A DNA stretch of 26,903 nt. Source: a virus (Duplodnaviria > Heunggongvirae > Uroviricota > Caudoviricetes). The position numbers were made by a program, and so were the translations under genes. A model generated the notes under the pieces. It had not been told where the DNA came from and did not search any database. It saw nothing but the letters and a program-made list of their open reading frames with translations. The stretch spans positions 1 through 26,903 of IMG/VR virus record IMGVR_UViG_2917413769_000006; one strand, written 5' to 3'. Below are positions 1,628 to 4,676 of the stretch, one piece after another (the first letter of the stretch is position 1; every line of letters starts with the position of its first letter).

Positions 1628-1999
1628 CTAGCTTTCAACGTCACACATAGCGACAGGAAATTTTTTGTACAGCGTAGATATTCCAACATCGTAGATAATT
1701 GAAACCTGCTTTTGCTCCATTCCATTTTTTATCAATCGTCCCATTTGCGCCCATTCTTCACTACTAAACTTTGGGCGCCTTCCACCAATACGCCCTTCAG
1801 CTCGTGCGGCTGCTAAACCAGCCCGGGTGCGTTCGACTATAAGCTCCCTTTCCATTTCTGCCAGTGCACCCATTACATGAAAGAAGAATCTCCCCATCGG
1901 CGTACTCGTATCGATGCTATCCGTCAGGCTCCGGAAGTTAACCCCTTTCTCCTGCAGTTCCTCCACTAACACAACAAGATGTCGCATGCTGCAACCGCA
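1628..1999 (-). pseudogene. DNA invertase (Pin/Gin/Hin-type serine recombinase), 5'-truncated: catalytic N-terminus missing
   Basis: Minus-strand ORF MRHLVVLVEELQEKGVNFRSLTDSIDTSTPMGRFFFHVMGALAEMERELIVERTRAGL... is near-identical to the C-terminal two-thirds of Pin-family invertases as I recall them; resemblance stops about 4 codons upstream of the first Met and an in-frame stop follows, so roughly 65-70 N-terminal residues including the active-site Ser are absent. Confidence 0.85.
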
Positions 2000-2180: not shown

Positions 2181-2461
2181 TGGCAAAATCAGCAGCAGAG
2201 CGCAAAGCAGCACAGCGCGCCCGCCAGTCTGCCGCTGGTGGGCGGAAACTTGAACTGGTGCTGGATGCGCAGGAACTGGAAATGCTTGCCCGAAACTGCG
2301 CAGATCGTCGACTAGGCCGCGCGCCGTATGAAATGGGGGAATATATAGCGCTTCTCATTCGCCAGGATGATGCGCGTGTAAAGGGGAATATCAAATCAAT
2401 CAGCGCGAATCGCTGCGGTAAAACTGACAATGTGACATGTCACGACACCCTAAAACCTTAG
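2180..2461 (+). CDS. small hypothetical protein, possible ribbon-helix-helix DNA-binding protein
   Basis: ATG at 2180 overlaps the TAA of the MTase fragment (TAATG). 93 aa: basic N-terminus, alternating-hydrophobic strand (RKLELVLD) followed by two predicted helices, consistent with an RHH fold. Inference only. Confidence 0.45.
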   Translation: MAKSAAERKAAQRARQSAAGGRKLELVLDAQELEMLARNCADRRLGRAPYEMGEYIALLIRQDDARVKGNIKSISANRCGKTDNVTCHDTLKP

Positions 2462-2556
2462 AGACGAACCGCCAGATAATGTCGGTTTTTCGTTATTAAA
2501 CAGGTTGGTACAAAATAACCACGCTTGATGTTTTAACGTTTTGTGCCTTTAAAAGT

Positions 2557-2605
2557 TTGCACTTACTGCCACTTGGGAGTATATATGCTGTACGTTTATA
2601 CAGCA
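2557..2605 (+). promoter_or_regulatory. sigma70 promoter (-35 TTGCAC, 17-bp spacer, -10 TATATA) overlapped by a LexA (SOS) box
   Basis: -35 at 2557-2562, -10 at 2580-2585; immediately downstream 2586-2605 TGCTGTACGTTTATACAGCA fits the LexA consensus CTGT-N8-ACAG with AT-rich spacer; RBS GAGGGAGG at 2613-2620 and ATG at 2625. Confidence 0.7.
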
Positions 2606-2624
2606 CACTTGTGAGGGAGGGAAC

Positions 2625-2816
2625 ATGTTCAAAAAGGCGGAGGTCGGGGAACATCTCCCCGATAACGGTCGCGCTCTCATAACCTGCAAGAATGGTAAGG
2701 TGACAGCACTCAGGAACATCTACGATGATGAGCACGTAGCATCGCTTAAGTCTTTGTTAGAGCTGGCAGAACAAGCGGGTTGTGTCGTTGTTCAAAGAGG
2801 AAAAAATAAGATATAA
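2625..2816 (+). CDS. small SOS-regulated protein (63 aa), function unknown; candidate antirepressor or SOS-induced effector
   Basis: ORF with good RBS directly downstream of the LexA-box promoter; no recognisable motif. Confidence 0.55.
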   Translation: MFKKAEVGEHLPDNGRALITCKNGKVTALRNIYDDEHVASLKSLLELAEQAGCVVVQRGKNKI

Positions 2817-2820
2817 TTAT

Positions 2821-2859
2821 GGTACCGGACTGAGCACCCGGCACCTGTATTTCTGAGCA
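2821..2859 (+). terminator. possible weak intrinsic terminator/attenuator hairpin
   Basis: 8-bp stem (ggtaccgg / ccggcacc, one mismatch) followed by a T-rich tract tgtatttct; lies between the 63-aa ORF and the next gene. A perfect 10-bp palindrome agcaattgct (2856-2865) follows. Confidence 0.3.
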
Positions 2860-2883
2860 ATTGCTGCGCTAAAGGGGAAACCA

Positions 2884-3480
2884 ATGGCGCAGTATTCATT
2901 TGTAAAATCAGCAGGCGGAGTATTAATTCCGGCGACACCTGATGCACGGGAATTTATCGAGAAAAAATTCCGTCTTGGTGCTGTTTTATATGCAGACTTT
3001 AAACAGGCACGTAATGCGGCATTTCACCGTAAATTTTTTGCACTCCTGAATCTTGGTTTCGATTACTGGCAACCGTCGGGCGGTGCAATGTCCCCGGCAG
3101 ATAAAAAACTGGTTCGTGGGTATGTGCAGCTGGTGGCCCATTATGCTGGCCATGAAGAAACACTCCAGGAACTGGCCGATCAGTATCTGCGTGAAGAGGC
3201 AGAAAAACGCGCCGGTAATATCAGCGCTGTAAAATCCTTTGAAGCCTTTCGCGCCTGGGTAACTATTGAGGCGGGTTTTTATACTCAATACGAAATGCCA
3301 GACGGTACTACCCGCAACGAACCCAAATCCATATCGTTCGCCAAAATGGACGATCTCGAGTTTTCCCAACTCTATAAATCCGTACTTGATGTGCTATGGA
3401 ATTATATTTTGTTCCGCACATTTCCCACCCAGCAGGCTGCAGAAAACGCCGCCTCACAATTATTCAGTTACGCCGCATGA
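2884..3480 (+). CDS. nin-region phage protein (DUF1367-like by recollection)
   Basis: 198-aa ORF with RBS; sits directly upstream of, and overlaps by ATGA with, a YbcO-like gene, as in lambdoid nin regions. Family name from memory, not verified. Confidence 0.55.
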   Translation: MAQYSFVKSAGGVLIPATPDAREFIEKKFRLGAVLYADFKQARNAAFHRKFFALLNLGFDYWQPSGGAMSPADKKLVRGYVQLVAHYAGHEETLQELADQYLREEAEKRAGNISAVKSFEAFRAWVTIEAGFYTQYEMPDGTTRNEPKSISFAKMDDLEFSQLYKSVLDVLWNYILFRTFPTQQAAENAASQLFSYAA

Positions 3481-3770
3481 AGAAAATCGATCTCACCAAA
3501 CAGGCGCGCGGTCGCATGTGTACTGTGCGCATTCCAGGTATCTGCAATTTTGATCCAGAAACCAGCGTTCTTGCCCATTATCGCATGAGTGACACCTGCG
3601 GGATGGGAATCAAACCACATGACATGCAAGGCGCAATTGCCTGCAACTGTTGTCATGACGTAATCGATGGCCGTGCAAAAACCGATATTGATCAGGACAC
3701 TCTGAGGCTATATCACGCCGAAGGTGTTTTCCGTACCCAACAAATCTGGAGAGAGGAGGCGTTTATATGA
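3477..3770 (+). CDS. YbcO-like protein (DUF1364), putative Zn-binding nuclease of lambdoid nin regions
   Basis: MKKIDLTKQARGRMCTVRIPGICNFDPETSVLAHYR...ACNCCHDVIDGR: Cys cluster and RIPG.CN..PETSVLAH motif resemble DLP12 YbcO as I recall it; ATGA overlap with the upstream gene. Confidence 0.7.
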   Translation: MKKIDLTKQARGRMCTVRIPGICNFDPETSVLAHYRMSDTCGMGIKPHDMQGAIACNCCHDVIDGRAKTDIDQDTLRLYHAEGVFRTQQIWREEAFI

Positions 3771-4345
3771 TTAACCCATCAACGACAGGAAAGGGTGGTG
3801 AAATGCTGCGATTAAACACCCTCGAGTCAGTCTGGATTCAGGGGAAACTTCGTATGTGGGGCCGATGGTCATATATTGGATCCGGCTCAGGTGGTGACAT
3901 GTTTAATAACCTTCTCGCGTCAAAAAAAGTCAGTAAAACTGCTATTCAGCAGGTGTTGAGGCATCTCAAATCATCGGGTCTGGATCACGGTGAACTGATG
4001 TCATATTTTCTGGACATGCTTTCCGGAAAAGAAAAAAGCAACCTTGCATTCTGTACCGATGAAGAAGGCCTGTTAATGGATGCTGTGATCGGTGAAATAT
4101 TAGTTCGGACTGGTCATCAGCGCCTTTTTAAATTGGTAGTTGATCGGTACAAGGATCGTATGAGTAAGAAGGCTATGGCAAGAGAACTGAATACTCGTCA
4201 CCCGGAATGGTGCCTACGTACCTGCGAAAGTCGAATTGATGTCTGGTTGCAGATGGCAGAAGCCATGCTGTACTTACCAATGTGTGATGTATTCGATAAA
4301 AAAGCTGATCGATTCCGGTTGCAAAGTTGCGCGGGGATTGCTTGA
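3767..4345 (+). CDS. late-gene antiterminator Q-like protein
   Basis: Position immediately upstream of terminator hairpins and the lysis cassette; N-terminal LESVWIQGKLRMWGRW resembles the LERWG.W start of Q-family antiterminators (QuuD-like). Alternative start ATG 3803. Confidence 0.65.
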   Translation: MINPSTTGKGGEMLRLNTLESVWIQGKLRMWGRWSYIGSGSGGDMFNNLLASKKVSKTAIQQVLRHLKSSGLDHGELMSYFLDMLSGKEKSNLAFCTDEEGLLMDAVIGEILVRTGHQRLFKLVVDRYKDRMSKKAMARELNTRHPEWCLRTCESRIDVWLQMAEAMLYLPMCDVFDKKADRFRLQSCAGIA

Positions 4346-4395: not shown

Positions 4396-4425
4396 AACCC
4401 GCCATCAAGCGGGTTTTGTCGTTTC
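4396..4425 (+). terminator. rho-independent terminator hairpin
   Basis: 7-bp GC-rich stem aacccgc / gcgggtt with 6-nt loop, followed by ttttgtcgtttc. Confidence 0.6.
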
Positions 4426-4646
4426 TGGAGGATGGAAAAATGAAATAGCTAAACGGAAATACCGTATTGGATACTATATTTTGGCAACGTGACGACAGCG
4501 TTAATCTGGTCGGGCTCTCATGGCGACGTAGTGAGGGAGAGAAAGCGTAAAGCATCACTGAGTTACGGTTGACGCCCGGTTTAACGCGTAAGTAGTCTGA
4601 TAAAGAGATAGTGCGCCGCGACCCTCACAGCGGCAACGATTAACGG

Positions 4647-4676
4647 ACCCCGGCATTTGCCGGGGTTTTCTTATTT
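4647..4676 (+). terminator. rho-independent terminator hairpin
   Basis: Stem ccccggc / gccgggg with loop attt, followed by ttttcttattt. Confidence 0.65.

Follow-up and report, generated by a model that had tools for sequence, protein, structure and literature searches.

The window, a 26,903-nt stretch of DNA from a virus of the class Caudoviricetes, carries a gene for a 63-aa protein of the Rem/FsoA family, preceded by a LexA operator and predicted to encode a prophage antirepressor. We favour, with a probability of about 80%, the interpretation that this LexA-controlled antirepressor triggers induction of a prophage whose GtgR-like repressor is non-cleavable. The sequence evidence behind it consists of the operator and its conservation, homology to experimentally proven antirepressors, synteny with the Gifsy phages and the type of repressor encoded alongside; from these we infer that LexA binds the operator, that the gene is induced in the SOS response and that its product physically inactivates the repressor. 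The mechanism as such is already known from Tum of phage 186, AntC of N15 and the Gifsy phages. The features of the locus are collected in Table 1.

Table 1. Features at and around the predicted antirepressor gene (positions in the window)
Feature	Position	Strand	Basis
Junction between invertase-gene 3' fragment (minus strand) and Dcm-gene 3' fragment (plus strand)	1983-1997	.	Homology break
Terminator-like hairpin and T-run, ending the upstream gene and insulating the LexA promoter	2466-2490	+	Folding; relatives
-35 hexamer TTGCAC	2557-2562	+	Direct reading; conserved in relatives
-10 hexamer TATATA	2580-2585	+	Direct reading; conserved in relatives
LexA operator TGCTGTACGTTTATACAGCA (20-mer) over the expected transcription start	2586-2605	+	Motif search, PWM, conservation
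Shine-Dalgarno GAGGGAGGG	2613-2621	+	Direct reading; GGGAGG-type motif retained among relatives
63-aa Rem/FsoA-family protein, predicted antirepressor	2625-2816	+	PHROG, Pfam, BLASTP, hhalign, codon bias, AlphaFold2
Small conserved hairpin in the DUF1367 leader; loop ACUGAGCAC	2821-2845	+	Core stem 2824-2828 with 2838-2842, covariation
DUF1367 gene, homologue of Gifsy irsA	2884-3480	+	Pfam PF07105, 8.6e-84
YbcO-family gene, overlapping both neighbours	3477-3770	+	Annotation
Q-like late antiterminator (DUF1133 / Phage_antitermQ)	3767-4345	+	Domain match
Terminator-like sites, pR'-type region after Q	4396-4415, 4645-4668

A LexA operator is conserved at the promoter of the small gene

The motif CTGT-N8-ACAG occurs once in the 26.9-kb window, against 0.22 occurrences expected by chance. 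When scored with an approximate position weight matrix (PWM) made from 28 E. coli LexA sites, this box reached 21.7 bits (heterology index 5.9), above the median training site, and the second-best site of the window reached 11.2 bits. The top score in 200 shuffles of the window was 20.2 bits, none equalling that of the real box. The first-pass annotation had placed a LexA operator over the start region of a promoter, and our scan agrees: the operator abuts the -10 hexamer and is the sole good LexA box in the window.

For comparison, we gathered relatives of the ORF from five loci of bacterial genomes and 80 viral contigs, and added the annotated records of an intact prophage of E. coli ST536 and of phage BUCT708. 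A LexA box of 20.3-27.0 bits was found in all 84 collected loci with upstream sequence, ending 15-22 nt before the start codon, and it was retained while protein identity to the window ORF ranged from 42 to 94%. The ST536 prophage and BUCT708 showed the same arrangement, with boxes of 27.0 and 24.9 bits, respectively. Elsewhere in the collected loci the best LexA-like site mostly scored below 10 bits. Within the box, the bases of the spacer differ among lineages, with CTG-N10-CAG being retained, and the box of the window sits at the low-scoring end of the range of its relatives. One relative (locus L055) contains a second LexA box (21.6 bits, positions 3653-3672), approximately 300 nt upstream of the box of the antirepressor gene.

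The promoter had been described as near-consensus for sigma70, which overstates its quality, as it agrees with the consensus at only seven of 12 positions and was not called in a generic promoter and terminator scan of the window. We nevertheless consider it credible because its geometry (TTGNNN, 17-nt spacer, TATATA) is conserved. Among relatives, 65 distinct upstream sequences were compared, and the 17-nt spacer of the window recurs in 64 of these; the -35 hexamer is TTGCAC, TTGCGC or TTGCGA in 61 of the 65 (one of the first two in 58), and the -10 hexamer, which invariably adjoins the LexA box directly, is TATATA in 53.

The generic scan did not call the hairpin upstream of the promoter either. 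Its folding energy is -10.3 kcal/mol (z -2.5) in the window, where the stem carries one mismatch, as compared with -19.3 kcal/mol (z -6.9) in the intact ST536 relative (locus L001). The gene that it ends, a 101-aa ORF at 2156-2461, matches PHROG 536 'transcriptional regulator' (1.5e-32) and has no match in Pfam, NCBIfam or PADLOC; its position is retained in close relatives. Downstream of the operator, the good ribosome-binding site and 63-aa ORF reported in the first pass were recovered as a strong Shine-Dalgarno sequence and a real gene (see below). The ORF begins with ATG, as compared with GTG in 63 of the 65 distinct relatives. The ATG start, the weaker LexA box and the mismatched terminator stem would together tend to raise basal expression.

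The 63-aa ORF is a gene of the Rem/FsoA family

The ORF comprises 63 codons, followed by a stop codon at 2814-2816. Its differences from 29 distinct full-length homologues fall 285, 170 and 555 times at codon positions 1, 2 and 3, respectively, and the changed codons are 360 synonymous and 385 nonsynonymous. A profile of close orthologues collected 86 clusters, mostly of 55-100 aa, from 1.84 billion representative proteins. AlphaFold2 modelled the protein poorly from close orthologues alone (pLDDT 67), a deeper alignment being required; with 59 sequences it produced a confident model (pLDDT 89.7) consisting of a helix, a beta-hairpin and a second helix. The third-position bias, the family-wide conservation and the confident model show that the ORF is a real gene. 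In E. coli ST536 (NZ_CM174221.1), the homologous ORF, which starts with GTG (L001:8174-8365), is not called as a gene in the RefSeq record, which lists a 450-nt gap around it as intergenic.

It had also been stated that the ORF belongs to no recognisable family; this does not hold, as it falls into PHROG 340 (1e-17) and Pfam PF27490 'Rem'. Two PHROGs labelled 'anti-repressor' match it more weakly, over their C-terminal parts. In a precomputed Pfam table, the ORF has a PF27490 hit that is flagged weak, and 26 of the 28 retrieved relatives have a hit as well; no match was obtained with our local copy of Pfam-A, which does not contain the PF27490 model, nor with NCBIfam or PADLOC. This domain also forms the C-terminal module of proteins with an N-terminal P22_AR_N, Bro-N, Rha, KilA-N or ORF6N domain. 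A profile search of PDB sequences returned chance-level matches only, and Foldseek comparison of the model with PDB and BFVD gave nothing at E <0.001, so that neither approach found a solved or annotated antirepressor structure resembling the model. Megablast of the locus against phage records yielded matches at the DUF1367 edge only.

A tblastn search located a homologue in Salmonella phage Fels-1, gene STM0898.2n. We identify this gene as fsoA, because the primers in Table S1 of PMC3121763 spell its first and last codons. FsoA is an antirepressor experimentally shown to inactivate the Gifsy-2 repressor GtgR (PMC3121763), and it is the closest experimentally proven homologue of the ORF, with 40% identity over 43 aa (BLASTP, E 1e-11) and an hhalign probability of 96.5% (E 8e-10) against the close-orthologue profile. 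The two genes differ in their control: fsoA lies in the pL operon under a cleavable repressor, with no LexA box within 250 nt, and is reported to be free of LexA control and dispensable for Fels-1 induction (PMC3121763).

More remotely, the 59-member family profile matched Rem, encoded by prophage Qin of E. coli K-12, at 91.9% (hhalign, E 7e-7). Rem, also of family PF27490, is a small antirepressor of the short repressor DicA (PMC10448788), and its gene likewise has the early region on one side and Q on the other. Unlike for the window ORF, we saw no LexA box upstream of rem (L172:4904-5060), where a terminator precedes it; this absence fits the published statement that the inducing signal for rem is unknown (PMC10448788). 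The same profile matched GftA of Gifsy-2 at 74.6% (hhalign, E 2.7e-5), a similarity visible by profile comparison only, as BLASTP of the ORF against GftA gave no match. The first-pass suggestion that this SOS-controlled small gene might specify an antirepressor thus gains support from its homology to FsoA and Rem, as well as from its Gifsy-like position.

The locus resembles the antirepressor slot of Gifsy phages

In Gifsy-1, -2 and -3, a terminator is followed by a LexA-overlapped promoter and the operon dinI-gfoA/gftA/gfhA-irsA, in which an antirepressor gene of approximately 60-75 codons immediately precedes irsA/DUF1367 and Q and is separate from the immunity region (PMC3121763). The Gifsy LexA boxes, like that of the window, are preceded by terminators, and irsA, a DUF1367 homologue, is counted within the LexA-regulated operon (Lemire et al. 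2011, PMC3121763). The Gifsy-2 map reads terminator, LexA box, dinI, gftA, irsA homologue, ninG and Q; gftA starts with GTG, as do most relatives of the ORF, and the product of the following gene (STM1020, the irsA homologue) shares 56% identity with the DUF1367 protein of the window. The Gifsy phages also encode a short repressor without a cleavage domain. A second paper, on Gifsy-1 and RtcR (PMC9879122), contains nothing on the antirepressor operon.

The intact ST536 prophage reads, in order, repressor and cro, YdaT, replication genes, methylases, a small gene, the ORF homologue, DUF1367, DUF1364 (YbcO in the window), a Q-like gene and lysis genes. In this relative, therefore, the ORF follows the replication genes and is not part of the immunity region. 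The locus differs from the Gifsy operon in two respects. In the Gifsy phages dinI comes first, and here it is absent, the ORF beginning 19 nt past the LexA box with no Pfam DinI match; and the protein is of the FsoA/Rem type, remote from GftA. Given the matching gene order, we interpret the locus as the Gifsy antirepressor slot, lacking dinI and occupied by an antirepressor of another sequence type. The sequence comparisons weakly suggest a link to the LexA-controlled antirepressors of the Gifsy phages.

The same logic, a LexA-repressed antirepressor directed against a non-cleavable repressor, operates in coliphage 186 (Tum), N15 (AntC) and Salmonella phage SPC32H (Ant); see also PMC3121763. 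These phages have different genome types and gene positions, and their antirepressors, likened here by logic, were absent among the matches to the ORF.

The predicted target is a short repressor without a cleavage domain

If the ORF encodes an antirepressor, the repressor of the phage would be expected to be incapable of self-cleavage. Pfam recognises a helix-turn-helix (HTH) and no S24 domain in the 151-aa repressor of the ST536 prophage and in the 127-aa repressor of BUCT708, and the latter is similar to GtgR of Gifsy-2 (E 1e-12). We then surveyed the 60 viral loci in which 9 kb or more of sequence precedes the ORF. A divergently oriented HTH repressor of 129-166 aa was present in 59 of them; all 59 share a GtgR-like C-terminal motif, LF..LP.SEK.RH, and none matched the S24 parts of FsoR, LexA or lambda CI. 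The source genome of the window itself encodes a 136-aa HTH repressor of this type (L176:20693-21103), likewise lacking an S24 domain, with the motif LF..LPSSEKERH. Conversely, Pfam assigns both an HTH and an S24 peptidase domain to the Fels-1 repressor, and the FsoA homologues of Fels-1 and Stx phages lie in pL operons without a LexA box. We also noticed, in Fels-1, a 23.4-bit LexA-like site inside the coding sequence of the cleavable repressor fsoR (L003:1841-1860).

Each allele class of the antirepressor co-occurs with both HTH types of the repressor. There is thus no co-evolution signal for specific pairing, and linkage would confound any test of co-variation between the two; the free combination recalls the cross-reactivity of GfoA and GfhA in the Gifsy phages (PMC3121763).

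The early and late regions are inverted relative to each other

The first-pass annotation had seen no repressor or replication genes upstream of the locus and had read the left flank as a deletion junction. The break exists, as homology to intact relatives begins at position 1983, but it does not reflect a plain deletion. We compared the window with its source genome, contig VATL01000016.1 of GCA_005781065.1, which is 99.98-100% identical to it. Past the right end of the window (L176:14000-21227), this contig continues with tail fibre genes, two accessory genes and then the early block, which comprises DnaB, an O-like gene, YdaT and cro on the minus strand and the 136-aa repressor on the plus strand, approximately 33 kb away on the contig. 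In the ST536 prophage, inserted at the same yccA/serT site, the stretch between the ORF and the tail genes faces the other way with respect to yccA. The inverted block, which extends from the 3' fragment of the Dcm gene to include the tail fibre genes, is thus turned relative to the early block and the chromosomal flank; the missing DNA amounts to approximately 3.4 kb of methylase genes plus the 5' part of the invertase gene. The rearrangement is, therefore, an inversion with some loss of DNA, and the early region was not deleted. The left junction is also present in contigs from two other sequencing runs, and the late region is rich in intact ORFs.

One junction of the inversion lies inside a Hin/Gin-type invertase gene and the other inside a tail-assembly-chaperone gene of an invertible tail-fibre region. 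To the left of position 1983 lie the invertase 3' fragment, an IS3-family element (approximately 272-1605) and a 90-aa ORF. The IS3-family element (orfA 335-685, orfB 682-1569) has copies with approximately 96% identity across many genomes of E. coli; it is placed between the 90-aa ORF and the invertase fragment, and its flanks are contiguous in a related contig (L118). Over the chromosomal flank helD-yccA, identity to each of the E. coli genomes in our collection is 91-94.5%; the host is therefore Escherichia-like rather than E. coli proper.

Transcription may extend from the LexA promoter into Q

The weak hairpin that had been noted after the ORF is indeed there, at 2821-2845, and its core stem covaries. 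Among relatives, five of its seven pairs change on both sides, giving 25 double-change cells as compared with 9.9 ± 3.2 in shuffles and far lower values in slid controls. The 5-bp core occurs as the variants CCGG, TCGG/CCGA, TTGG/CCAA and CTGG/CCAG, the 9-nt loop, (A/C)CUGAACA(C/A), is nearly invariant, and the same element precedes irsA in Gifsy-2 (L005:11713-11731). The hairpin thus has some function. It is not convincing as an intrinsic terminator: the stem is thermodynamically weak, with folding z-scores of -0.5 and 0.06, its tail, UGUAUUUCU, is not a proper U-tract, and the generic terminator scan did not call it. An Rfam search of positions 2300-3100 returned nothing credible and no family for the hairpin, and the complement of its loop, GTGTTCAG, recurs at three scattered places of the window, all of them away from the hairpin. 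Between the hairpin and the DUF1367 start codon there is a perfect 10-bp palindrome, AGCAATTGCT (2856-2865), which is kept in many relatives and replaced by ACAATTGCT in others.

It is plausible that transcription starting at the LexA promoter reads through into DUF1367, YbcO and Q, because the hairpin is weak and no credible terminator occurs before Q; between these three genes, which overlap one another, the scan gave chance-level sites only. Such read-through would also agree with the inclusion of irsA in the LexA-regulated Gifsy operon (PMC3121763), and it would be more consequential here, where the inversion has cut Q from pR. With the early region inverted relative to the late region, pR can no longer transcribe Q.

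These observations bear on the strongest alternative, namely that the main job of the promoter is direct SOS control of the late switch. The ORF, DUF1367, YbcO and Q would then form one operon through which Q turns on the lysis and structural genes without the early cascade, the small ORF being secondary. The overlapping genes, the lack of a convincing terminator and the Gifsy precedent for irsA all speak for it, as do the intact ORFs that fill the late region and the fact that, after the inversion, the LexA promoter is the sole recognised promoter remaining upstream of Q. However, intact relatives with the same layout retain the full early cascade, so read-through is unnecessary to explain the promoter; the hairpin, conserved with compensatory changes, could attenuate or process the transcript; and Q-type proteins, as in lambda, must build up before acting. 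We regard a primary role in the late switch as unlikely on balance, and it is compatible with an antirepressor role. A little less likely still is a reading suggested by the anatomy of this rearranged prophage, in which the LexA promoter is left by the inversion as the only one placed to transcribe Q: if its transcripts passed the hairpin, LexA would directly control the lysis and virion genes through Q, in parallel to its indirect control of the early genes through the antirepressor.

A Gifsy-type SOS switch is the preferred explanation

As an induction switch of the Gifsy type, the locus would constitute the SOS input. In the uninduced lysogen, LexA of the host would occupy its operator and shut the TTGCAC-17-TATATA promoter, because the operator lies directly against the -10 hexamer and over the transcription start, and the upstream terminator would exclude other transcription from the promoter. 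Following DNA damage, activated RecA would induce the self-cleavage of LexA, the promoter would fire and the 63-aa protein would be made. This antirepressor would then bind the short, non-cleavable, GtgR-like HTH repressor and strip it from its operators, derepressing the early lytic promoters. The weak hairpin would probably not halt the transcripts, which would continue into DUF1367, YbcO and Q.

It is very unlikely that the 63-aa protein is instead another kind of SOS effector, such as a toxin, an inhibitor of cell division or a RecA modulator resembling DinI. Prophages are known to make small SOS-induced proteins of such kinds, and overproduction of Rem causes filamentation (PMC10448788), but that filamentation results from derepression of dicB and dicF, and is thus the antirepressor effect itself (PMC10448788). 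Moreover, the ORF has no match to Pfam DinI, NCBIfam or PADLOC and no significant Foldseek match in PDB, and every detectable homology leads to antirepressors. Even though the prophage is rearranged and its box and upstream terminator are weaker than those of its relatives, we give practically no credence to a LexA-like site and ORF arising by chance in the intergenic region of a decaying prophage, in view of the shuffling results, the box in all 84 loci, and the codon-position bias and family-wide conservation of the ORF.

The LexA-controlled antirepressor that we favour would provide a likely function for a gene that annotation has left nameless or skipped. It would also extend the role of FsoA/Rem-type antirepressors to that of a LexA-controlled trigger in widespread lambdoid prophages of enterobacteria with short GtgR-like repressors; the group of prophages bearing the ORF was found in Citrobacter, Salmonella, Enterobacter, Pseudescherichia, Yokenella and Escherichia. 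Antirepressors of this sort are able to act on the repressors of other resident prophages (PMC3121763), so that even the copy in the rearranged prophage could place other prophages under SOS control. The inversion offers, in addition, a natural test of whether an antirepressor promoter can drive Q. If it can, such rewiring could keep a scrambled prophage inducible, or make of it an SOS-triggered cassette for lysis or particle production.
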